This document shows positions 3,059 to 60,441 of a stretch of 64,000 bases of DNA, piece after piece; within the stretch, counting starts at the first letter, position 1, and every line of letters starts with the position of its first letter. The DNA is from Parcubacteria group bacterium. GTDB taxonomy: Bacteria; Patescibacteriota; Minisyncoccia; UBA6257; JACRHW01. The position numbers and the translations under genes are program-made. A model generated the notes under the pieces. It made no database searches and was not told the DNA's origin. It worked only from the letters and a program-made list of their open reading frames with translations. Where the stretch lies: contig JACRHW010000017.1 of the NCBI GenBank assembly GCA_016217555.1, positions 5,093 to 69,092 of the forward strand. The letters are read 5' to 3'.

Positions 3059-3832
3059 ATGGAACAAAATATTAAAAATTATTTAGGTGTTGCAGGAATC
3101 ATTGCCATTCTTGCTGTGGCATATTCTAGTTATTCATATGTTGGGTCGTATGCGAGGTCAACAGATGTGAGGAGTTTTACGGTTTCAGCTGAAGGAAAAG
3201 CGATTGTATTGCCTGACGTAGCAAAATTTTCATTTAGTGTTATTACCGAAGGCGATAAGAACGTTGCTGACCTTCAGGGAGAAAATACAAAAAAAGTGAA
3301 CGACGCAATCAATTTTGTAATAGCGAAACACGTTGATAAAAAGGATATCAAAACCACAAATTATAATGTAACTCCTCGTTATCAGTATTCAAACTGTCCG
3401 CTTATGCAAAGCTCAAAACCATGTCCACCCCCATCAATCGCTGGATATACTATTTCCCAAGACGTTGAAGTTAGGGTTCGTGATTTCAGTGCAGTAGGGG
3501 ATATTCTTTCTGGTGTCGTGAGCAAGGGGGCTAATTCCGCTTCTGGGCTCTCTTTTACCGTAGATGATCAGACAAAGTATACGAATGAAGCACGTGCCGA
3601 GGCAATCCAAAAAGCGAAAGATCAGGCGAAGAGTATTGCACAGGCGGGTGGATTTCGATTGGGTCGTTTGGTATCGATACAAGAGGCGGGAGGGCAACAA
3701 CCATATGCGTATGATTCCTATGCTCCTAGTGGAATGATGAAGAGTTTTGCGGAGGTTGCGCCATCTCCTCGTATCGAGGCTGGTTCTAATGAAATAAAAA
3801 CATCCGTAACTCTTACCTACGAGATCGAGTAA
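3059..3832 (+). CDS. SIMPL (DUF541-like) secreted/periplasmic protein
   Basis: N-terminal TM/signal anchor, then FTVSAEGKAIVLPDVAKFSFSV... and C-terminal IEAGSNEIKTSVTLTYEI pattern typical of SIMPL/BP26-like proteins. Confidence 0.7.
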   Translation: MEQNIKNYLGVAGIIAILAVAYSSYSYVGSYARSTDVRSFTVSAEGKAIVLPDVAKFSFSVITEGDKNVADLQGENTKKVNDAINFVIAKHVDKKDIKTTNYNVTPRYQYSNCPLMQSSKPCPPPSIAGYTISQDVEVRVRDFSAVGDILSGVVSKGANSASGLSFTVDDQTKYTNEARAEAIQKAKDQAKSIAQAGGFRLGRLVSIQEAGGQQPYAYDSYAPSGMMKSFAEVAPSPRIEAGSNEIKTSVTLTYEIE

Positions 3833-4052
3833 CATCTATCTATTTTACGCATAGCTTTGTCAGAAACTACGTTTTTTATTCGCTGTACTGTCTTGTACAG
3901 CTCACAAAAAGCCTCGTTTCTTTCGCGCTCTGCATCAAAATATATAGATGTTATAGTATTTCCTGAGCTCGCCTGTGGTGAGTTTATCGAATCCATCGAG
4001 GACCCACTACTATTGTCCTATAAGCTATCAGCTAACACCTAAAAGCTAAACT

Positions 4053-4497: not shown

Positions 4498-5100
4498 ATG
4501 GACATTACGCATTTCCTTCAGACGTTTGGATATATAGGTGTCACCAGTCTCCTTATTACAGAGACTGGTTTGCTTGTTGGGTTCTTTTTGCCAGGAGACA
4601 CCTTGTTGTTTGCGATGGGGATTCTTATTTCACAACATATTTTTAATTTTCCTACTGCATTTCTCTCGATTATTGCTGGGGCACTTATTGGAGATACACT
4701 GGGATATATTATTGGTCGCGTGGCGGGGCCAATGGTATTCGCTCGCAAGGATTCTTTGTTTTTTGATCGTACGCACATTGAGGCGACACGTGAGTTTTAT
4801 AAAAAGCATGGATCACTCGCTGCGCTTATTGGCCATTTTTTTCCTATCGTACGTACTGCAGTGCCTACTTTTGCAGGGATAGGGCGTATGCATTTCCCCC
4901 GTTTCTTTCTCTGTGATTGTGTAGGAATAATAGTATGGGCATTTTCTTTTGTCTCACTTGGCTATTATTTTGGTGCAGCCATTCCTCATCTTGATAAATA
5001 TCTCGAAAAGGTGCTTCTTGGTATCTTTTTCATCTCCCTTTTGCCGGGTATTGTGCATTTTGTAATCCACAAATCAAAACTGAAGAAGACGCAACTTTGA
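4498..5100 (+). CDS. DedA-family membrane protein
   Basis: FLPGDTLLFAMGIL and G(x)IxGDxxGYxxGR motifs; ATG at 4498 preferred over the upstream overlapping start in the ORF track. Confidence 0.85.
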   Translation: MDITHFLQTFGYIGVTSLLITETGLLVGFFLPGDTLLFAMGILISQHIFNFPTAFLSIIAGALIGDTLGYIIGRVAGPMVFARKDSLFFDRTHIEATREFYKKHGSLAALIGHFFPIVRTAVPTFAGIGRMHFPRFFLCDCVGIIVWAFSFVSLGYYFGAAIPHLDKYLEKVLLGIFFISLLPGIVHFVIHKSKLKKTQL

Positions 5101-18975: not shown

Positions 18976-19061
18976 TTTTCATTATAATGACCCCATGTAG
19001 ATGGGGCTTTGTTTTTTCTTTGGTTTTATGACATAGTTACAATAATATCTTGAATTAAGAA

Positions 19062-19203
19062 GTGTGTATTTCGAACCATTCCGCAGACGCGAAGCTGGGT
19101 GTTGTCAACCCCGAGTGGAAACGAGTTGGGTTGACAACGGAGCGTCTGCGGGTGGAGTGAGTCGCCGCGGGAGTGACGAACGCGTGAGAAACACACATTT
19201 CGT
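19062..19203. repeat. structured ~140-nt repeat, family F copy 1 (opposite orientation to copies 2 and 3)
   Basis: ccgcagacgc...gttgtcaacccc...gggttgacaac...gcgtctgcgg nested hairpin bracketed by gtgtgt/acacac. Confidence 0.85.
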
Positions 19204-19296
19204 AATTCAAGGAATAATATGTCTTCGAGTATTTTTTTATTTATCGTATTCATCTCCCTATTTTATATAGGTGTTCTTTCAATTTTTATCTAAGAT

Positions 19297-24453: not shown

Positions 24454-24580
24454 TGTGTAAAACGCACATTTTTAACTCGCCTCTAAAATATTTGTCGCAT
24501 GGTATCTCTGTGCGACTTTTTATTTTTTCGGGATTGTAATTTTTTGAAATATTGCATAAAATTGGTAAATACGACAAAAT

Positions 24581-24653
24581 GCGCCCATAGCTCAGCTGGT
24601 AGAGCAGCTCCCTTTTAAGGAGATGGTCGTAGGTTCGAATCCTACTGGGCGCA
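24581..24653 (+). tRNA. tRNA-Lys(UUU)
   Basis: GCGCCCA acceptor / TGGGCGC, D arm GCTC-AGCTGGTA-GAGC, anticodon loop CTTTTAA, T arm GTAGG-TTCGAAT-CCTAC. Confidence 0.95.
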
Positions 24654-24655
24654 CT

Positions 24656-25990
24656 ATGAACAAAAAAAATATTTCTTTATTTATTGTTATTTTATCAATT
24701 GCTGCACTTGCGGCATTTTATGATTATCCTATGGGGTGGGATAGGGGGGCGGATTATCTTACGGGTAAAATTCACCAAGCTCCTTTTGCGTGGGCGCAGA
24801 AGGTTGCTATTCCACATTTTTTGAACAAGCCCTATGTGTTGGGGTTGGATGTCGCAGGGGGTGCACACCTTGTGTATAAGGCGGATGTGTCGAAAGTTCC
24901 TTCTGGAGACCAGGCGTCTACTATGAGTGGGCTTCAAAACGTAATTGAGCGGAGGGTAAACATCTTTGGAGTAAGCGAGCCACGGGTGGAGACGCAAAAG
25001 GTGGGGGATTCGTGGCGTCTTGTGGTGGAGCTTGCGGGGGTTAAAGACGTGGGTGCTGCAATTGCGGCAATCGGAAGTACCCCCTATCTTGAGTTTCGCG
25101 AGGAGGGGGTGGAGCCGAGCACGGTGAGTGCCTCTGGCACTGTTGAAATAAATGGTACACAGGGTTTTAAGGCAACCAATCTTACGGGTAAATACCTTTC
25201 ACGTGCATCACTTGATTTTGATAAGACGACGTTTCAGCCAACAGTGCAGTTGCAGTTTAATAATGAGGGTGCAAAACTTTTCGAGGATATTACCGCACGC
25301 AATGTAAAGAAGCGGGTTGCAATAGCTATTGATGGGGTTATTATTTCAGCTCCTGTGGTGAATGAGAAGATTGTGGGTGGGCAGGCGGTGATTTCAGGAA
25401 ATTTTAGCCTTGATGAGGCAAAAAAGCTTGTTGCTAATCTGAACGCTGGTGCACTGCCTGTTCCCATCGATCTCATTTCCCAGCAGACTGTTGGTGCAAG
25501 TTTGGGGGAGAGTGCCCTACGGCATAGTGTGAAGGCGGGGTTTATTGGGCTCATTGTAGTCTTTCTTTTTATGGTTTTGTATTATCGTTCGCTTGGGTTT
25601 TTTGCTTCGCTTGCGTTACTTATCTATACCGCGCTTGTTCTTGCAATATTTAAGACAATTCCTGTTACCATTACTCTTGCGGGTGTCGCTGGTTTTGTAC
25701 TCTCTATCGGTATGGCGGTTGATGCGAACATTCTTATTTTTGAACGTGTTAAGGAGGAGAGAAAAAGAGGGAAGGGTGGCAAACAGGCTATTGAGGAGGG
25801 GTTCTTGCGAGCGTGGACATCTATTCGCGACTCGAATGTTTCAACTATTATTACGAGTCTTGTGTTATATACGTTTACCACGTCCATTGTGCAGGGATTT
25901 GCCCTCACCCTTCTCATCGGGGTACTTATAAGTATGTTTACAGCAATTACCGTAACAAGGACGATGTTGCGAATATTTTTAAAAGCATAA
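24656..25990 (+). CDS. secD: protein translocase subunit SecD
   Basis: N-terminal TM, periplasmic domain, C-terminal 5-TM RND-like bundle; ATG 2 nt after the tRNA-Lys 3' end. Confidence 0.92.
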   Translation: MNKKNISLFIVILSIAALAAFYDYPMGWDRGADYLTGKIHQAPFAWAQKVAIPHFLNKPYVLGLDVAGGAHLVYKADVSKVPSGDQASTMSGLQNVIERRVNIFGVSEPRVETQKVGDSWRLVVELAGVKDVGAAIAAIGSTPYLEFREEGVEPSTVSASGTVEINGTQGFKATNLTGKYLSRASLDFDKTTFQPTVQLQFNNEGAKLFEDITARNVKKRVAIAIDGVIISAPVVNEKIVGGQAVISGNFSLDEAKKLVANLNAGALPVPIDLISQQTVGASLGESALRHSVKAGFIGLIVVFLFMVLYYRSLGFFASLALLIYTALVLAIFKTIPVTITLAGVAGFVLSIGMAVDANILIFERVKEERKRGKGGKQAIEEGFLRAWTSIRDSNVSTIITSLVLYTFTTSIVQGFALTLLIGVLISMFTAITVTRTMLRIFLKA

Positions 25991-25997
25991 TACTTCT

Positions 25998-26888
25998 ATG
26001 AACATTATTGGACACAGAAAATTATATTATAGTATCTCAGGCACTGTTATTATTATCTCCCTCGTTGCGCTTGCGTTGTGGGGGTTTAGGTCGGGGATAG
26101 ATTTTACAGGAGGGTCTTCGTGGCAGGTTCGTGCAAGTGGTATCGATGTTGTTGCGGTGACAAAACTTTTTAGCGAAAATGGAATAGAGCATGTGTTTAT
26201 TGAGCAGGGGGCTGGAGGTGAACGAACGCTTCGTTTCGAGGAGGTATCTGAGGGCAAGCACCAACAGCTTTCATCTCAACTCAAAAAAGTATATCCCGAT
26301 CTTGTCGAAGAACAGTTTTCGGTAATTGGACCTACGATCTCCGGCGAGCTTCGTCAAAAGGCAATGTTTGCTATTGTCTTTGTTTTGTTTGGTATCTCTC
26401 TTTATATAGCACTTGTTTTTCGTCAGGTTTCACGCCCACTTTCTTCTTGGGTGTATGGGATAGTAACCCTATTTACATTATTTCATGACGTAGTTGTGCC
26501 TGCGGGTGTTTTTGCCATCCTCGGGCATTTTTGGGGGGTGGAGATTGATTCAAATTTTGTAGTAGCTATGCTTGTAGTAATGGGGTTTTCTGTTCACGAC
26601 ACTATCGTTGTGTTTGATCGCGTACGCGAAAATTTGAAGCGTATTACAAGCAAGGTGTCGTTTGAAGAACTAGTAAATAAAAGTATGCTTGAGACGTTTG
26701 CGCGATCGGTGAACACGTCTCTTACGGTGGTACTTGTTCTTCTTGCTTTGCTTTTCTTCGGTGAACCTAACCTTAGATATTTCATTACGACCCTTCTTAT
26801 TGGTATTCTTACGGGAACATATTCTTCCATATTTATTGCGAGTCCTATTCTCGTTGATATTGCGCTTTTGAAGGCAAAGAGAAAATAG
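25998..26888 (+). CDS. secF: protein translocase subunit SecF
   Basis: GIDFTGG motif and SecF TM bundle, adjacent to secD. Confidence 0.92.
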   Translation: MNIIGHRKLYYSISGTVIIISLVALALWGFRSGIDFTGGSSWQVRASGIDVVAVTKLFSENGIEHVFIEQGAGGERTLRFEEVSEGKHQQLSSQLKKVYPDLVEEQFSVIGPTISGELRQKAMFAIVFVLFGISLYIALVFRQVSRPLSSWVYGIVTLFTLFHDVVVPAGVFAILGHFWGVEIDSNFVVAMLVVMGFSVHDTIVVFDRVRENLKRITSKVSFEELVNKSMLETFARSVNTSLTVVLVLLALLFFGEPNLRYFITTLLIGILTGTYSSIFIASPILVDIALLKAKRK

Positions 26889-26891
26889 ACT

Positions 26892-27004
26892 GGCGCTGTT
26901 TTGAAACACAATATTCCCTGAGCGAAGTCGAAGGGTTTCCTTAGAGAAAGGCAGGCCTTCGACAAGCTCAGGCACTAGTAATTATGAGGTTACCGAACAG
27001 TGCC
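26892..27004. mobile_element. MITE-like element, family H copy 2 (inverted relative to copy 1)
   Basis: ggcgctgttttgaaac ... gaggttaccgaacagtgcc around cctgagcgaagtcgaaggg...gccttcgacaagctcaggc. Confidence 0.7.
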
Positions 27005-27016
27005 AAATAGACTTGA

Positions 27017-27116
27017 CCCCGTTAGAAGTAGACAAAATGTGTTAAAATCTTTAGGCTAAAAATGTGGTATCTAGATGTATTGAATCTTAAAAACGTTTTC
27101 GCTACTTCTAACGGGG
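27017..27116. mobile_element. 100-bp MITE, family I copy 1, TIR ccccgttagaagtag, TSD TTGA
   Basis: TIRs at both ends; TTGA at 27013-27016 and 27117-27120. Confidence 0.75.
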
Positions 27117-27190
27117 TTGACTTAAAACAAAGAATATACCATAAAGAGGTAGAAACATTTTTATGGTATGCGAGGTAGTATACAAAGGGT

Positions 27191-27219
27191 TTGACTTCAA
27201 AATCACTCTGTGTTATATT
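27191..27219 (+). promoter_or_regulatory. sigma70-type promoter TTGACT-17-TATATT
   Basis: TTGACT 27191-27196, TATATT 27214-27219, 19 nt upstream of ATG 27239. Confidence 0.6.
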
Positions 27220-27238
27220 ATCAGCATATAACCACTCT

Positions 27239-28309
27239 ATGCAAAATAAAACTCTTATACAATTAATTCATGATGCGTTGGGGATTTTAAACAAGAGGTC
27301 GAGGATTATCATCGAAAAAAGATACGGTTTGAAAACCGGTAATTTTGTAACTCTTGAGGCGATCGGGCAGGAGTATGGCATTACACGAGAGCGCGTGCGT
27401 CAAATCGAGGCGGCGGCCCTTACCAATCTTAAGAAGCATCGCATGCTTGATGGTCTAGAAGAGCCCATCCAAAAAACCAAAAACCATCTTGCACAATTGG
27501 GGGGTGTCTCTAGAGAGGATGTCCTTCTCGCTGCCGCAGCTCCTTATTTTGGTGTCGAGGATTCTAAAAAATTAAAAGCTTTTTATCCTTACTTCTATTT
27601 TGTTATGGAGCAGTCAGGATTGAAGCACTTGCCAGAAAGTGAGGAGTTTCACTCCGCATGGTATTTAGATACTGCATCGTTTCATCGCGCCAAGGATACT
27701 ATCCAGAAGTTCGAAGCATATCTTGAGGAGGTGGAGCGTCCTTTGGCTGCACATCTCGTTTCAGAACATATCAATCTGTTTTCAAAAAGTGGTACGGCAG
27801 TGAGTGATGAGTATTTGCAGAATCTTATTTCACTTTCAAAATTGTTTGGAAACAATGTCTTTGGGGAATTTGGGCTTGTCTCATGGAAGGAGATTGCGCC
27901 ACGTGGTGCAAGAGACAAGGCATTTCTCGTTCTCAAAAAGCATACAAAGCCACTTCATTTTCGACTTATCACACAACACATTAATGAGGCCAAATTTGCT
28001 CCCAAAAAGAGCCATCCGCTTACCGTCCACAATGAGCTTATTAAGGATAACCGATTCGTGCTCGTGGGGCGTGGGGTATATGCCTTGAAGGAGCGGGGGT
28101 ATGAGGCGGGAACAGTGCGCGATGTACTCAAAAGCCTTCTTCGTAAGAATGGTCCTCTTCCTCTCGCTTCACTTACACAATTGGTAAGCGATCAGCGCTT
28201 AGTTAAAGAAAACACGATCTTACTTAATCTTCAAAATCGTCAACACTTTTTAAAAAGTTCTGATGGGGTGTATACTGTGAAGGGCGATAGTTCAAACAAA
28301 ACAAAATAG
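27239..28309 (+). CDS. DNA-binding protein: sigma-70 region-4 HTH fused to two HARE-HTH-like modules
   Basis: EKRYGL...TLEAIGQEYGITRERVRQIEAAAL (sigma r4); ...FGEFGLVSW and HNELIKDNRFVLVGRGVYAL (HARE-HTH pattern D-x-RF...G-x-Y/W-x-L). Confidence 0.65.
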   Translation: MQNKTLIQLIHDALGILNKRSRIIIEKRYGLKTGNFVTLEAIGQEYGITRERVRQIEAAALTNLKKHRMLDGLEEPIQKTKNHLAQLGGVSREDVLLAAAAPYFGVEDSKKLKAFYPYFYFVMEQSGLKHLPESEEFHSAWYLDTASFHRAKDTIQKFEAYLEEVERPLAAHLVSEHINLFSKSGTAVSDEYLQNLISLSKLFGNNVFGEFGLVSWKEIAPRGARDKAFLVLKKHTKPLHFRLITQHINEAKFAPKKSHPLTVHNELIKDNRFVLVGRGVYALKERGYEAGTVRDVLKSLLRKNGPLPLASLTQLVSDQRLVKENTILLNLQNRQHFLKSSDGVYTVKGDSSNKTK

Positions 28310-28452
28310 GATTTACGCGTTTGGCGCATTTTTTCGTCAGAAACTCCGGTACAGAACGCAGTATATTTTTAATATTGCTTATTCTGATGAATGAAACGAA
28401 TAGTTTCGTTCATCGTTTTCTCCTCGAACTGCATCCAAACGCGTAAATCCTA
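28307..28452. mobile_element. 146-bp MITE-like element (family J) with 18-nt perfect TIR
   Basis: taggatttacgcgtttgg ... ccaaacgcgtaaatccta; internal hairpin gatgaatgaaacga/tcgtttcgttcatc. Confidence 0.7.
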
Positions 28453-28461
28453 CAAAGATTA

Positions 28462-29715
28462 ATGCTTGAGGGAATTTGGTATAGCATACTTATTGTATGG
28501 GGATATGTATGGTGGCTGGCAACGCCACTCATACTTTTTTATGTTTTTTCTGATTTGTGGATGATGTATGTGGGGTTGGAGTATTTTAAGAGTATCGAAT
28601 GGGTTACTCTTGAGGTACGTATTCCTCGTGAAATTTTAAAGACTCCAAAGTCAATGGAGCAGATTTTTAGTGGAATGCATGCCATTCAGGCTTATATTTC
28701 AAACCTAGATAAGATTTTGAAGGGTAAGTTTCAGGAGTGGGTAAGTTTTGAGATAGCAGGGACGGGGGGAGGGGTAAATTTTTATATGCACACTCCTGTT
28801 CAGTTTAGGAATCTTATTGAATCACAAATTTATGCTCAGTATCCTGATGCCGAAGTGATGCCAGTTGATGATTATACACATCTCATTTCCCACAGTATTC
28901 CAAACGAAGAGTACGATATGTGGGGGGTTGATTATGTATTTACAAAACCTAGCCCTTATCCTATCAAAACATATCCACTTTTTGAGGATATAAAAGATGA
29001 GCGTCGTGTCGACCCTCTTTCAAGCGTGATTGAAACAATGAGCCAACTCAAAAGCAATGAGATGATGTGGATTCAGTTGCTTATTAAACCCGCCCCAAAG
29101 GAGTTTAAAGAGGAATCAGATGCAATTATTGATAAGCTTGTGGGTAAGGTGCCAAAGCCCAAGAAGGGTTCCTTTACGGCGTTCGTAGATGGGCTTCTCG
29201 AGTTTACATGGAATCTTGCAAAAGGGCTTGTTGAGTATCCAGAGTGGAAATCTCAGGCTGAGGCGCCAAAAGATGCTGATGCCGCAAAACTTACTCCGGG
29301 TAAAAAAGAAGTACTCGAGGCAGTAGAACACAAGGCATCTCACTTGGCATTTCAGACGGGGCTTCGATTGATCTATATCGATAAGAGGGATAGTTTTACG
29401 CGTGTGAATGTTGCGGCTTTGAGTGGAGGGTTTAAGATTTTTAATACTTCAAATATGAATTCCTTTATGCCAGATTTAATCACTATGCCAAATTCTCGAG
29501 GATGGTTTTGGTTGTTCAAGAAGCAGAAAGAATATATGATGAAGAGGAGTATTGTCGAAGCGTATCGATTGCGCTTGTTTCCCAAGGGAAGCATGGTAAT
29601 GTCGAGTGAAGAGCTTGCAACGATATATCATTATCCTAACTTAAACGTGGCCGCTCCATTTTTACGACGGCTTGAAACAAAGAAGGGGCAACCGCCACCT
29701 AATTTACCCATCTAA
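28462..29715 (+). CDS. hypothetical membrane protein (2 N-terminal TM) upstream of T4CP-like ATPase
   Basis: 417-aa ORF; no family recognised; same strand, 207 nt upstream of the ATPase gene. Confidence 0.65.
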   Translation: MLEGIWYSILIVWGYVWWLATPLILFYVFSDLWMMYVGLEYFKSIEWVTLEVRIPREILKTPKSMEQIFSGMHAIQAYISNLDKILKGKFQEWVSFEIAGTGGGVNFYMHTPVQFRNLIESQIYAQYPDAEVMPVDDYTHLISHSIPNEEYDMWGVDYVFTKPSPYPIKTYPLFEDIKDERRVDPLSSVIETMSQLKSNEMMWIQLLIKPAPKEFKEESDAIIDKLVGKVPKPKKGSFTAFVDGLLEFTWNLAKGLVEYPEWKSQAEAPKDADAAKLTPGKKEVLEAVEHKASHLAFQTGLRLIYIDKRDSFTRVNVAALSGGFKIFNTSNMNSFMPDLITMPNSRGWFWLFKKQKEYMMKRSIVEAYRLRLFPKGSMVMSSEELATIYHYPNLNVAAPFLRRLETKKGQPPPNLPI

Positions 29716-29922
29716 CGAGGGGTTAGGTTTTAGTGTGTTAGGTTCCAAGGGCTAGAAATATCATGATCGTGCCTCGTTTCCTAATAAATCCCGTTAAAGG
29801 TAGAAAAAATAGTTAGTATATATTATTATTCATGTGTTAAAAACTATGCAACTATCTAAAACAGTCGTTTGTACCTACCCCTAACGGGATAAACTAATTC
29901 CTAAAAGCTAGAAGCTAATACA

Positions 29923-31884
29923 ATGTCTGACGCACAATTTGATCTCGCTATTGGGGAGACGAACTTTCGCAACCAACGCGTGAGATTTGGTATTCGCCAA
30001 GACGATCGTAGGCGTCATACATATGTAATAGGTAAAAGCGGTATGGGAAAGAGCGTACTCCTTGAAAATATGGCCATCCAGGATATGGAGGCGGGGCGTG
30101 GTCTCGCATTTATTGATCCTCATGGAGATACCGCTGAGAAGCTTTTGGATTTTGTCCCAAAGTCTCGTATTAACGACGTTATTTACTTTGATCCTTCGGT
30201 GCTTGATCATGCAATCGCCCTTAACCCCATGGAAAATGTATCTATTGATCGGCGTCATCTTGTGGCATCGGGGCTTATGAGCGTGTTTAAGAAAATATGG
30301 CCTGATGTGTGGTCTGCGAGAATGGAATATATTTTGAATAATTGCCTCATGGCGCTTCTTGAGATTCCCGATGCAACACTTCTTGGTGTCATGCGTCTTC
30401 TAAACGACAAGGATTATAGAAAATATGTTATCGATCAGCTTACTGATCCTCTCGTGCGAGATTTTTGGACGAAGGAGTTTGCGCGTTATAAAGACCAGTT
30501 TCAGACGGAGGCAATTGCGCCTATTCAAAATAAGATTGGTCAGCTTACCATGAATCCTCTTATCCGTAATATTATTGGACAACCCAAATCGACCATTGAT
30601 ATTCGAAAAATAATGGATGAAGGAAAGATTTTTTTGGTAAATCTCTCTCGTGGGAGAATTGGAGAGGATAATAGCAGCATCCTTGGTTCTTTGCTCGCCA
30701 CAAAACTTCAGCTCGCAGCTATGAGTAGGATTGATATTCCACGCGAGGAGGACAGAAGAGATTTTTATTTGTATATTGATGAGTTTCAACATTTTGCGAC
30801 GCCGTCATTTGCTGCCATTCTTGCCGAGGCGCGCAAGTTTCATCTCAATCTCATCGTAGCTAATCAATACATGACTCAGATGGATGAGACGGTGCGAGAC
30901 GCCATAGTAGGAAACGTAGGGACTATGATGGTGTTTCGCATTGGTGCAGACGACGCCGAGTTTTTTGAAAAGGAGATGTTCCCTGTATTTCTTATGACTG
31001 ATTTGGTAAATCTTCCTCGTGCCCAAGTTATTATGAAGCTTATGATTGACGGGGCAACTTCTCCGCCTTTTTCCGCAGTGACACTTCCTCCGGCATCAAA
31101 ACCAGAGGTCAGTTTTCGTGATGAGATTTTGAAGGTTACCTACTCCACTTATTCTATTGCTCGTGAACGCGTAGATGAGATTATAAATGAATGGTTGAGT
31201 ACTAATTTTGTTTCTGACAAAGATGGTGGTGTCGATGGCGTCATTCCAGGAGGTGTAGCTCCCCGCGAAGGTGTTGGGGCAAGTCAAGACGTGGGTGTAC
31301 AACCTCAGCGTGAGATGTTTAACGCGGTGTGTTGGAATTGTACCGCAGAGACGCAGATTCCTTTTCAGCCCGATCCAAAGTGTGCAGTATATTGCAAAAA
31401 CTGTCTTAAACTTATTCAAGCCGGGAAGATTCTTCCACCGACGCGTCCAAGAGGTGGAGCACCTCTTCCGTCACAAGTACAACAGCAAAGCGCACCTCCT
31501 ATGCCGCCGTCACCACTACAAGCACAACAACCCGTCGTGAAACGGCAAGATGTTTCGTCTGTTCGCCAAGAAACTCCAATAGTAAAGGAATCACAGCAAG
31601 CACCTCGCCCACAATATGTTTCCGGGCAACATATGTCTTCCCAACCTCAAGCGCCGCAGTCTTCTGGGTCATCAGAGCAACCACCTATGCAACAATCGCA
31701 ACAAAACATTTCTTCGAGGTCACAACCTCTACAGGTACAACATTCATCTGCGACATCGTATCTCGACACTATGCTTAAGCAAGCTCCACCTCGCGAGGCG
31801 CGCAAGTTTGCTCCCCCAAAAAAGGAGGTAAATCTCGACGAGCTCAAAAAAGCGATTGAGGAATCTTTGAAGTCTGTGAAGTGA
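29923..31884 (+). CDS. VirD4/TraD (type IV coupling protein)-like P-loop ATPase fused to CxxC-x17-CxxC zinc ribbon and Q/P/S-rich tail
   Basis: Walker A GKSGMGKS, Walker B FYLYIDEFQHF, FIDPHGD; C-terminal CWNC-x17-CKNC; no TM segment. Confidence 0.8.
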   Translation: MSDAQFDLAIGETNFRNQRVRFGIRQDDRRRHTYVIGKSGMGKSVLLENMAIQDMEAGRGLAFIDPHGDTAEKLLDFVPKSRINDVIYFDPSVLDHAIALNPMENVSIDRRHLVASGLMSVFKKIWPDVWSARMEYILNNCLMALLEIPDATLLGVMRLLNDKDYRKYVIDQLTDPLVRDFWTKEFARYKDQFQTEAIAPIQNKIGQLTMNPLIRNIIGQPKSTIDIRKIMDEGKIFLVNLSRGRIGEDNSSILGSLLATKLQLAAMSRIDIPREEDRRDFYLYIDEFQHFATPSFAAILAEARKFHLNLIVANQYMTQMDETVRDAIVGNVGTMMVFRIGADDAEFFEKEMFPVFLMTDLVNLPRAQVIMKLMIDGATSPPFSAVTLPPASKPEVSFRDEILKVTYSTYSIARERVDEIINEWLSTNFVSDKDGGVDGVIPGGVAPREGVGASQDVGVQPQREMFNAVCWNCTAETQIPFQPDPKCAVYCKNCLKLIQAGKILPPTRPRGGAPLPSQVQQQSAPPMPPSPLQAQQPVVKRQDVSSVRQETPIVKESQQAPRPQYVSGQHMSSQPQAPQSSGSSEQPPMQQSQQNISSRSQPLQVQHSSATSYLDTMLKQAPPREARKFAPPKKEVNLDELKKAIEESLKSVK

Positions 31885-32592: not shown

Positions 32593-32616
32593 TAAATAAA
32601 TCGCATCCTATATATT

Positions 32617-32748
32617 TCTCACCCATTCGCCACTCCAGCGTGCGGCTCACTCATCCACAGACGCTTCGTTGTCAACCCAACTCATTCTGATTCGGAGTTG
32701 ACAACACCCTGCTCCGCGTCTGCGGAATGGTTCGAAATACATGTGTTG
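32617..32748. repeat. structured repeat family F copy 2
   Basis: ccacagacgcttcgttgtcaaccc...ggagttgacaacaccctgctccgcgtctgcggaatggttcgaaatac. Confidence 0.85.
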
Positions 32749-32767
32749 TGATTCAGAAAATTTTATA

Positions 32768-32902
32768 CGTATCAGCTCACAAGACTGAGTGGAAAAATAA
32801 GATAGTGCCTGAGCTTGTCGAAGGCCTACCATAAGGAAACCCTTCGACTTCGCTCAGGGACTATAGATAAAGACTAACTTACTCAGAGTTGTGAGCTGAT
32901 AC
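32768..32902. mobile_element. nested palindromic element: outer TIR gtatcagctcacaagactgagt, inner PELVEG-type hairpin
   Basis: atcagctcacaagactgagt ... actcagagttgtgagctgat flanking gcctgagcttgtcgaaggc...cccttcgacttcgctcagg. Confidence 0.65.
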
Positions 32903-32975
32903 TTTTACACCTATTGACTAAACTACACCGTTTGTGGTATTTTTGTTTTAGCACATAGAAAAAGGAGGTAGTGAG

Positions 32976-39822: not shown

Positions 39823-39936
39823 TACCCCACCCGAGACCAAAGCTCATCTCCAAAGGGGAGACCGTTACAACCCCCCTATTATAGCGATAACACCTGACTC
39901 CCCCTTGAGGATGATCATTTGGTCTCGGGTGGGGTA
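39823..39936. mobile_element. 114-bp MITE-like element (family K) with 19-nt perfect TIR
   Basis: taccccacccgagaccaaa ... tttggtctcgggtggggta. Confidence 0.7.
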
Positions 39937-51476: not shown

Positions 51477-51512
51477 TGCCACCTTAGCTCAGCTGGCAGA
51501 GCAACACTTTTG

Positions 51513-51678
51513 CTCCGATATTGTATAAAATCATAAATTTTGTACAATATCGAGAGTCCTCGATTTTATAAAAAAAATTTGCCAGAGTAGCTCAGCTGGC
51601 AGAGCAACACTTTTGTAAAGTGAAGGTCGCGAGTTCGAATCTCGCCTCTGGCTCACGCAAATTTTTATAAAATCGGGA
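51513..51678 (+). mobile_element. 166-bp structured insert in the outer tRNA anticodon, carrying the inner tRNA-Thr
   Basis: 15-bp hairpin 51516-51552; 17-bp AT helix 51561-51580/51659-51675 enclosing the tRNA; short terminal inverted repeat tccgat/atcggga. Confidence 0.6.
51581..51653 (+). tRNA. tRNA-Thr(UGU) (inner, intact)
   Basis: GCCAGAG/CTCTGGC acceptor, anticodon loop TTTGTAA, T arm GCGAG-TTCGAAT-CTCGC. Confidence 0.93.
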
Positions 51679-51687
51679 TAAAGTGAA

Positions 51688-51786
51688 CCCCGTTAGAAGT
51701 AGGTAAAAACATTTGTTGTTCGTCTCGTGTATATCATAGATGGTACAATAATGTAGAAAAATTGTTTTTGTATACTTCTAACGGGG
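51688..51786. mobile_element. 99-bp MITE, family I copy 2, inserted in the outer tRNA-Thr 3' half; TSD TGAA
   Basis: TIR ccccgttagaagta / tacttctaacgggg; TGAA at 51684-51687 and 51787-51790. Confidence 0.75.
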
Positions 51787-51827
51787 TGAAGGTCCTCGGT
51801 TCGAATCCGAGAGGTGGCTCAGGTATT

Positions 51828-60169: not shown

Positions 60170-60189
60170 TTATTTTTGTAAATTATGAT

Positions 60190-60361
60190 TTACGAAACCT
60201 CTCTTCCTCACACGTTCGGATACCTAGCGGTATCCTCACTCATCCGCAAGCGCTTCGTTGTCAACCCAACTCTCCGCCATCCGCCAACTGGCTGAGGCGG
60301 ATCGGGGTTGACAACACCCTGCTTCTCACTTGCGGAATGGTTTGGAAGAGATGTTTCGTAA
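60190..60361. repeat. structured repeat family F copy 3 (with extra apical hairpin)
   Basis: tacgaaacctctcttcc ... ccgcaagcgcttcgttgtcaaccc ... ggggttgacaac ... cacttgcggaatgg ... ggaagagatgtttcgta. Confidence 0.85.
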
Positions 60362-60441
60362 GTCATCACTATAAAAGTACAATATACTTTTTAAGTCAAG
60401 TTCACTAATTATATAAAAGAGGTACACTGGGGCTAGTTACT

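Follow-up and report, generated by a model that had tools for sequence, protein, structure and literature searches.

The 64,000-nucleotide stretch analysed here (the window; positions 5,093 to 69,092 of contig JACRHW010000017.1, Parcubacteria group bacterium) belongs to a genome of the Patescibacteria, or candidate phyla radiation (CPR), and its gene content includes secDF, rpsB, tsf, efp, leuS and clpB. Three inserts of about 100 bp with similar ends lie in it: one between secF and a sigma-r4/HARE-HTH gene, inside a −35-like TTGAC motif (copy 1); one inside a tRNA-Thr(UGU) gene (copy 2); and one 33 nt before the start codon (ATG) of a gene for a VirD4/HerA-like ATPase (copy 3). This insert is very probably a non-autonomous miniature inverted-repeat transposable element (MITE) belonging to a previously undescribed CPR family, whose insertion duplicates 4 bp of the form T-N-N-A. 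A first-pass annotation of the window had proposed a family of two copies, of 100 and 99 bp (copies 1 and 2), with shared ends and perfect 4-bp flanking repeats (TTGA/TTGA and TGAA/TGAA). Reading of the sequence confirmed both copies at their positions, together with their ends and flanks, but the third copy had been overlooked. Copies 1 and 2 have identical 14-nt ends (start CCCCGTTAGAAGTA, finish TACTTCTAACGGGG), and the ends of copy 3 read TCCCGTTAAAGGTA / TACCCCTAACGGGA. A search of the window with the 14-mer gave four matches without mismatch, which are the four arms of copies 1 and 2, and ten matches with up to three mismatches, the remaining six of which include both arms of copy 3. The inverted repeats of the window copies reach 31 nt, imperfectly; those of copy 1 are 84% complementary over this length. 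Identity between the three interiors was 54–62% in either orientation, compared with a mean of 52% and a maximum of 62% for shuffled sequences, which bears out the earlier statement that the interiors are largely different.

Comparison with related contig loci fetched from outside the window (L002–L071) revealed exact empty sites for two of the three copies, namely copies 2 and 3, and thus the presence/absence polymorphism among relatives that the first-pass annotation had suggested looking for. Sibling contigs L058, L060 and L054/L055, whose EF-Ts is 91–92% identical, contain a single uninterrupted tRNA-Thr(UGU) directly 5′ of tRNA-Tyr, and this 75-nt tRNA equals the 5′ and 3′ halves of the interrupted window gene (tRNA-A; Table 1) without the MITE and one TGAA. 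Deletion of copy 2 plus one TGAA yields AAAGTGAAGGTC, which matches the intact tRNA-Thr of the window, as had been claimed, and also the sibling orthologue. L042 is syntenic with window positions 24531–30672 at about 80% nucleotide identity. Its site for copy 3 is empty (CTAATAAACTAA) and equals the window sequence exactly, minus the element and one TAAA; its site for copy 1 is filled by an orthologous element with the same TTGA duplication. Between copy 1 and this orthologue, a change in the terminal inverted repeat (TIR) from GAAG to GAGG is matched by a change on the other arm. Since copy 1 is common to the window and L042, it is older than that split, and copies 2 and 3 are younger, lineage-specific insertions. 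At a further site, the groES start in L039, the element is absent from the groES relatives (L066–L070), in which one copy of the duplicated bases is left. The 4-nt flanks vary among copies and remain once at each empty site; they do not belong to any larger conserved element.

A scan of 185,579 species, one genome each, with the pattern CCCGTTANNNGTA-N55-85-TACNNNTAACGGG gave 52 loci, comprising 45 family loci in 25 assemblies and seven unrelated palindromes in other phyla. Looser matching within the 45 loci raised the count to 64–65 copies of 48–125 nt. Nearly all family assemblies are Patescibacteria; the labels of the metagenome-assembled genomes (MAGs), taken as deposited, are Saccharibacteria, Yanofsky-, Zambryskii-, Staskawicz- and Moranii-bacteria and ‘Parcubacteria/Patescibacteria group’, with two ‘Bdellovibrionales’ MAGs and one unclassified ‘MAG: bacterium’. 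Copy density was three in the 64-kb window and up to seven loci per assembly; several copies lie at contig ends, and the family breaks assemblies. The elements have no coding capacity and share a TIR of 14–15 nt defined by YCCCGTTAGARGTAG. A perfect 4-bp target-site duplication (TSD) was present in 41 of 64 copies, and three of the four positions matched in eight more (chance, ~0.25). All but two of the perfect duplications (39/41) have the form T-N-N-A, with TTCA (9), TGAA (9), TTGA (7), TCAA (4), TGGA (3), TCCA (3), TAAA (2) and TTAA (2) in the tally, and in the symmetrised target logo 84 of 86 sites begin with T and end with A. The consistent duplications that the first-pass annotation had expected of further copies genome-wide were therefore found. 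Duplications of 5 or 6 bp were rejected, as the outer bases agree in only ~57% of copies and the inner four fully.

Analysis of the ends revealed two types, in which the outermost base pair is T..A (40 copies) or C..G (24 copies), with one mismatch. Of 65 copies, 41 have arms of identical sequence. Positions 2–8 and 12–14 were fixed by the search pattern, and their invariance in the primary hits is therefore uninformative; positions 9–11, which were free in the pattern, co-vary between the arms (A:T 54, G:C 10 at position 11). The base 5′ of the duplication is often the same as the terminal purine of the element, being A in 32 of 56 cases for the T..A type and G in 17 of 30 for the C..G type (Fisher p ~1e-3 and 1e-4). 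The excess of A upstream of T..A-type elements is due to ATG start codons, and C..G-type copies prefer the −35-like GTTGAC/GTCAAC. Interiors form subfamilies that are kept across genomes, alongside many singletons. The largest subfamily comprises 24 copies of 110–113 nt, labelled mostly Saccharibacteria, and the second comprises five copies in groundwater Patescibacteria. A 100-nt subfamily (cluster 2) consists of window copy 1 and the copies in L017, L026 and L042, whose interiors are 71–77% identical to that of copy 1 and whose common orientation defines the strand given for it in Table 1. Outside cellular genomes, the paired TIR pattern had no match in viral contigs and the family was not found in phage records; Rfam searches over the elements, at the gathering threshold and at E up to 5, returned only tRNAs and noise. 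In the literature, we found neither the TIR string in this context nor a published MITE family for Patescibacteria or Saccharibacteria.

Some copies have unusual structures or settings. The flanks of L047:762-874 are reverse complements of each other (TTCA / TGAA), and L017:563-662 has ends of different types (C.. / ..A) and no duplication; both fit the products expected from recombination between copies, by inversion or deletion. Five or six copies occupy the replication-origin genes of a Saccharibacteria MAG (dnaN-dnaA / rnpA-yidC-jag; L050:1-8000): the start codon of dnaN and the dnaA-rnpA spacer each hold one, and two nested copies lie between rnpA and yidC.

Table 1. Copies of the element, and features of the interrupted tRNA-Thr locus. 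Coordinates without an L-number refer to the window.
Feature	Location	Strand	Details
MITE copy 1, C..G type, 100 bp	27017..27116	-	TSD TTGA at 27013-27016 and 27117-27120
MITE copy 2, C..G type, 99 bp	51688..51786	.	TSD TGAA at 51684-51687 and 51787-51790
MITE copy 3, T..A type, 101 bp	29789..29889	.	TSD TAAA at 29785-29788 and 29890-29893
Start-codon copies, examples	L039:2398-2507, L011:7663-7775, L029:790-901, L035:5383-5494, L048:2041-2146, L050:1455-1569		
In-frame copy in ddl	L014:6464-6573		+38 aa
In-frame copy in MBL-fold gene	L028:2456-2520		+23 aa
In-frame copy in smc	L045:3730-3779		+18 aa
tRNA-Thr(UGU) ‘A’, 5′ half	51478..51512	+	nt 1-35, ends at anticodon G35; identical in L058 and L060
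tRNA-Thr ‘A’, 3′ half	51679..51821	+	nt 36 to 3′ end, carries MITE copy 2; from sibling comparison and fold
Separate 166-bp insertion in anticodon of tRNA ‘A’	51513..51678	+	no target duplication
44-nt hairpin at start of 166-bp insertion	arms 51516-51531 / 51537-51552		
Intact tRNA-Thr(UGU) ‘B’ in 166-bp insertion	51581-51654		surrounded by inverted repeats 51561-51574 / 51662-51675
tRNA-Tyr	begins 51828		directly 3′ of tRNA ‘A’

The distribution of insertion sites showed an association with start codons. In 26 of 64 copies (~40%), the last base of the element (A or G) and the TG of the duplication together form the ATG or GTG that opens an open reading frame (ORF) of at least 80 aa, compared with only 9 and 2 of 128 junctions for the other two frames; the ORFs in these counts are mechanical predictions, and some sites are orthologous between assemblies. 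At these sites the element separates the A of a genuine start codon from its TG, and its own terminal base rebuilds ATG or GTG. The genes concerned include groES, dnaJ, dnaE, dnaN, rplI and rplB, and their N-termini look genuine (DnaJ, MKDYYQILGV; GroES, MKIKPLHDRV; DnaE, MKFTHLHTHTHYSLL; also L9, L2 and DnaN). The groES start in L039 reads ATGAA-(element)-TGAAAAT, and the GroES gene as annotated by others has the same start and the same length of 95 residues; in groES relatives of 92–96% identity, the controlling inverted repeat of chaperone expression (CIRCE) and a −10 box are followed by ATGAAAAT and no element. A TAnnnT hexamer ends 4–12 nt 5′ of the original start codon at 16 of 25 sites, and a Shine–Dalgarno (SD)-like motif precedes it at none of the 25, so that the start-codon sites look mostly like leaderless-type genes cut at +1/+2. 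No sigma-70 promoter was predicted inside the elements in a scan over the copies of two loci, and an intrinsic terminator scan found none inside the scanned copies. In five cases the upstream gene terminates at a TAG within the TIR. Three intragenic copies, detected by an ORF-spanning search that could reveal in-frame copies only, add residues read as PVR(S/G)...SNG. The family is new, although elements of this kind are known, and its relation to start codons is unusual.

At the tRNA-Thr locus (51478–51821), copy 2 lies between nt 44 and 45 of tRNA-A, and the duplicated TGAA corresponds to T41–A44. The first-pass annotation had rightly placed this copy inside a tRNA gene, but the exact point is where the anticodon stem meets the variable loop rather than within the stem itself. 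A second insertion, the 166-bp cassette, splits the anticodon of the same gene between bases 35 and 36. Consequently, the intact tRNA-Thr (tRNA-B) that had been called a neighbour has the matching sequence but is nested inside the broken gene, and the clean before/after view that had been proposed holds for the exact empty sites in the siblings but not for the locus, which contains two independent insertions. The cassette is not of the MITE TIR family, although its outer end reads TCCCGAT, and it is absent from the sibling contigs. No second copy of it was present in any fetched locus, its inverted-repeat motif was found only here, and a metagenome scan with the T and acceptor arms of tRNA-B returned only ordinary tRNA-Thr(CGU) and tRNA-Met genes and no second cassette. 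tRNA-B has nt 8–48 in common with tRNA-A and differs from it in the acceptor stem (GCCAGAG, against GCCACCU in tRNA-A) and the T stem; matching versions of these two arms are found in tRNA-Thr(CGU) genes on other CPR metagenome contigs. The predicted RNA fold of the whole locus (−135 kcal/mol, z = −9.8) is a tRNA-A cloverleaf, in which the two tRNA-A halves pair with each other, with three extruded hairpins, copy 2 taking the position of the variable arm. Because the cassette brings a complete replacement tRNA-Thr(UGU), tRNA-B most likely supplies the function, leaving the MITE-bearing tRNA-A as a redundant and presumably non-functional remnant in which the insertion of copy 2 was neutral.

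Other features were noted around these and further tRNA genes. One sibling lineage has a free-standing LAGLIDADG_3 endonuclease gene between tRNA-Thr(UGU) and tRNA-Tyr (L054:6841-7686 and L055:1136-1981), the position at which the window is rearranged. In L058:4330-4560 and L060:4180-4270, the 3′ end of tRNA-Tyr and the bases downstream (~26 nt, ATTCCCTCTCTGCCCACCAATACAAA) are doubled around an insert of 60–190 bp, which looks like the scar of another insertion. A ‘tRNA-Stop’ predicted in L042 was rejected as a register artefact of ARAGORN; the gene is tRNA-Lys. A second link of the MITE family to tRNA genes is found in L019:5716-5902, where a solo left TIR directly precedes tRNA-Ala(CGC) and a complete MITE (TSD TCCA) has inserted at the 3′ end of this gene. 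In L071, a 67-nt copy (TSD TTTA) lies ~70 nt 5′ of tRNA-Met.

TIRs at both ends, a TSD of fixed length, small non-coding dispersed copies and empty sites with a single copy of the target are among the properties by which a MITE is recognised, and all four were observed. A transposase encoded elsewhere would move the element in trans, cutting the target with a 4-bp stagger at T-N-N-A, probably by a DDE-type mechanism, and repair of the stagger would leave the 4-bp direct repeats that flank the element. Copy 2 would have landed in an ancestral tRNA-Thr(UGU) gene that was also broken by the unrelated hairpin cassette. Copies would survive where the duplication and the terminal base rebuild the signal that was cut, as at start codons (A|TGNA), −35-like TTGAC motifs and sites near stop codons, occasionally in frame inside genes, and in a redundant gene such as the tRNA; the site pattern would thus reflect selection rather than targeting.

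Several observations weigh against such a passive element. No autonomous element with these TIRs, the partner that the first-pass annotation had suggested looking for, was found in the window, in ~360 kb of related loci or in viral contigs, and TIR pairs 135–6000 bp apart with matching TSD in the related loci proved to be separate MITE pairs only. A tblastn search of all loci with the ISEcp1 transposase, obtained from an E. coli chromosome, gave no match. The two arms co-vary almost perfectly, which a passive MITE does not predict, and copy 1 and its orthologue in L042 differ by a change that is compensated on the opposite arm. The orientation towards the downstream gene is fixed in 18 of 18 start-codon copies of the two larger subfamilies. 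The tRNA-A exons are identical to those of the siblings at 75 of 75 nt, compared with only ~81% identity for the flanking genes; this indicates either that the insertions are recent or that tRNA-A is still constrained. With regard to the window itself, essentially all ORFs of at least 120 aa were searched against Pfam, NCBIfam and PHROGs without a transposase match, in agreement with the earlier statement that none is present. An ORF between copies 1 and 3 (28462-29715) was considered as a transposase and rejected, being a membrane protein adjoining the VirD4-like ATPase. The ORFs of the MITE-dense loci L050 and L009 are dnaN, dnaA, rnpA, yidC, jag and pilM/pilO.

Comparison with known systems places the family near, but not within, several of them. 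The Correia elements (CREE/NEMIS) of Neisseria are non-coding elements of ~100–155 bp with TIRs, a fixed short TSD and many gene-adjacent copies, which form hairpins when co-transcribed; to our knowledge, their cognate transposase has not been identified. By analogy, they are the best functional counterpart of the CPR family. However, Correia elements duplicate TA (2 bp), have 26-bp TIRs and are confined to Neisseria, whereas the CPR family duplicates 4 bp (TNNA), has an unrelated TIR sequence, occurs in many Patescibacteria lineages and inserts exactly at start codons in a fixed orientation. Like Rickettsia palindromic elements, the CPR palindromes can sit in frame in genes and add peptide (ddl, MBL-fold, SMC); in-frame intragenic copies are, in contrast, a small minority here, and the Rickettsia elements are not known to have a clear TIR/TSD signature and are unrelated in sequence. 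The piggyBac TIR is CCCTAGAAAGATA, and IS1380 elements end in ‘CC’ and are flanked by 4–5-bp repeats; the YCCC ends and 4-bp TSD of the CPR family resemble these. The 4-bp target of piggyBac is TTAA (PMC7351741), and the CPR duplication is likewise 4 bp long, starts with T and ends with A, but leaves the central two bases free. The ISEcp1 inverted repeats, read as CCTAGATTCTACGT / CCTAAATTCCACGT, have only a loose CC..TAGA motif in common with CCCGTTAGAAGTA, and the searched loci yielded no transposase of IS1380 or piggyBac type with these TIRs. The TIR resemblance is weak and could be due to chance, and an IS1380/piggyBac-like enzyme is a lead to the parent family rather than a result. IS701 was rejected as an origin: its target duplication of exactly 4 bp fits (PMC2266710, Table 1), but the end YCCCGTTAGAAG does not fit the published consensus ---YACT-Y--YR (PMC2266710), and no IS701-type transposase was found. 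A tRNA intron (group I or bulge-helix-bulge) was also rejected, as there was no Rfam match at E up to 5, the exon carries a 4-nt duplication, and the same element family occurs in intergenic DNA and protein genes. As with integrative elements in tRNA genes, the interrupted locus also provides an intact tRNA with the same specificity; integrases, however, rebuild the tRNA from a duplicated 3′ segment, whereas in the window the anticodon of one tRNA contains another, complete tRNA, and no integrase is present.

Mobility as a passive MITE leaves three things unexplained, namely SD-less translation behind a hairpin of ~110 nt, the fixed orientation and the joint change of the arms, and these keep a reading at the RNA level alive. 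The hairpins might be RNA-level intervening sequences or removable 5′ leaders that still spread as DNA: the stem would join the 4-nt repeats, and a cut at its base would lead to re-joining or to a leaderless AUG, so that the genes and the tRNA stay functional. Copies exactly on the start codons of the essential dnaJ, groES, dnaE, dnaN, rplI and rplB would suit such processing, as would the lack of an SD-like motif at all 25 original starts and of a sigma-70-type promoter across the elements in the two loci scanned, the fixed orientation, the compensated arms, including those of the orthologous copy, the cloverleaf fold of the tRNA locus and the unchanged tRNA-A exons. Against this, Rfam gave no intron or ribozyme match, an element of 100 nt is too small for a group I intron, bulge-helix-bulge geometry is not evident, and we know of no bacterial splicing pathway for such hairpins. 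Moreover, the three ORF-spanning copies are all in frame and stop-free, which fits translation, within a search that could detect in-frame copies only, and the complete replacement tRNA-Thr suggests that the interrupted one is dispensable. We consider processing of this kind improbable. A related reading, to which we give somewhat more weight while still regarding it as unlikely, is that insertion is directed, in one orientation, to +1/+2 of leaderless genes, where the element would serve as a mobile 5′ leader that forms a hairpin. In that case the hairpin would be bypassed or trimmed in the RNA, essential genes (groES, dnaJ, dnaE, dnaN and ribosomal protein genes) would stay expressed, and the rebuilt start codon would take its first base from the terminal A or G of the element; the same idea could be extended to the tRNA, where the hairpin at the variable loop and the tRNA-bearing one in the anticodon might undergo processing instead of being lethal.

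The element consists almost entirely of a single long hairpin, with GTAG adjoining the interior, as in repetitive extragenic palindromes (REPs), and an orientation bias linked to transcription starts would suit a single-strand mechanism. These features recall a single-stranded mobile palindrome moved by an HUH enzyme (IS200/IS605 TnpA or REP/RAYT type), in which the apparent TSD would combine a target tetranucleotide with a cleavage tetranucleotide borne by the element. However, the flanks are identical within a copy and vary freely among near-identical subfamily copies (TGAA, TGGA, TCAA, TTGA, TAAG, TAAA), which an element-borne 4-mer could not do; empty sites retain exactly one copy of the 4-mer, and the ends are true TIRs rather than subterminal hairpins that differ between left and right. 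An IS200/IS605 palindrome or REP/RAYT repeat, which would lack a target duplication and lie beside one fixed tetra- or pentanucleotide, was rejected as a candidate on these grounds, and the HUH mechanism in general is highly improbable. Least credible of all is that the copies are host-selected regulatory or structural repeats (an operator, a protein-binding palindrome, or an RNA stability or terminator hairpin) that are not actively mobile. Conservation of the TIR across phylum-level lineages, retention of an orthologous copy with compensated arms and the fixed orientation could be read in this way, but selection of this kind does not account for presence/absence among close relatives with exact 4-bp duplications, for insertions inside a tRNA and the coding sequences of ddl, SMC and MBL-fold genes, or for the unrelated interiors, and no terminator or promoter was predicted in the scanned elements. 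Later use by the host is possible, yet it would leave the origin unexplained.

The window contains further intergenic inverted-repeat elements with different ends. They measure 110–180 bp and lie at 19042-19218, 32615-32737, 32764-32907, 39823-39936, 28307-28452, 3830-3953 and 60185-60366. The segments 19069-19191 and 32615-32737 (reversed) match each other’s relatives and L026:2291-2413 at 87–89%, and 39839-39926 matches L060–L063. The genome thus seems to hold several families of hairpin repeats. Just 5′ of rpmE-rpsB-tsf, one sibling lineage carries a diversity-generating-retroelement-like pair of bAvd and reverse transcriptase (L060:364-1938, L061 and L062), which is absent from the window.

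Patescibacteria genomes are tiny and gene-dense, and the family described here, very probably of MITEs, is new mobile DNA in them, common to Saccharibacteria, several Parcubacteria lineages and a few other MAGs, and active over long periods. The tRNA locus provides a dated series, from the intact gene in the siblings to a gene with a hairpin cassette carrying a replacement tRNA, and with a MITE. Gene callers will face hairpins of ~110 nt at start codons, stop codons (TAG) borne by TIRs and in-frame inserts of 18–38 residues. At the ~40% of copies on start codons, a perfect hairpin parts the promoter and original ATG of a leaderless gene from its coding sequence, and these copies offer a concrete system for asking how CPR bacteria initiate translation.

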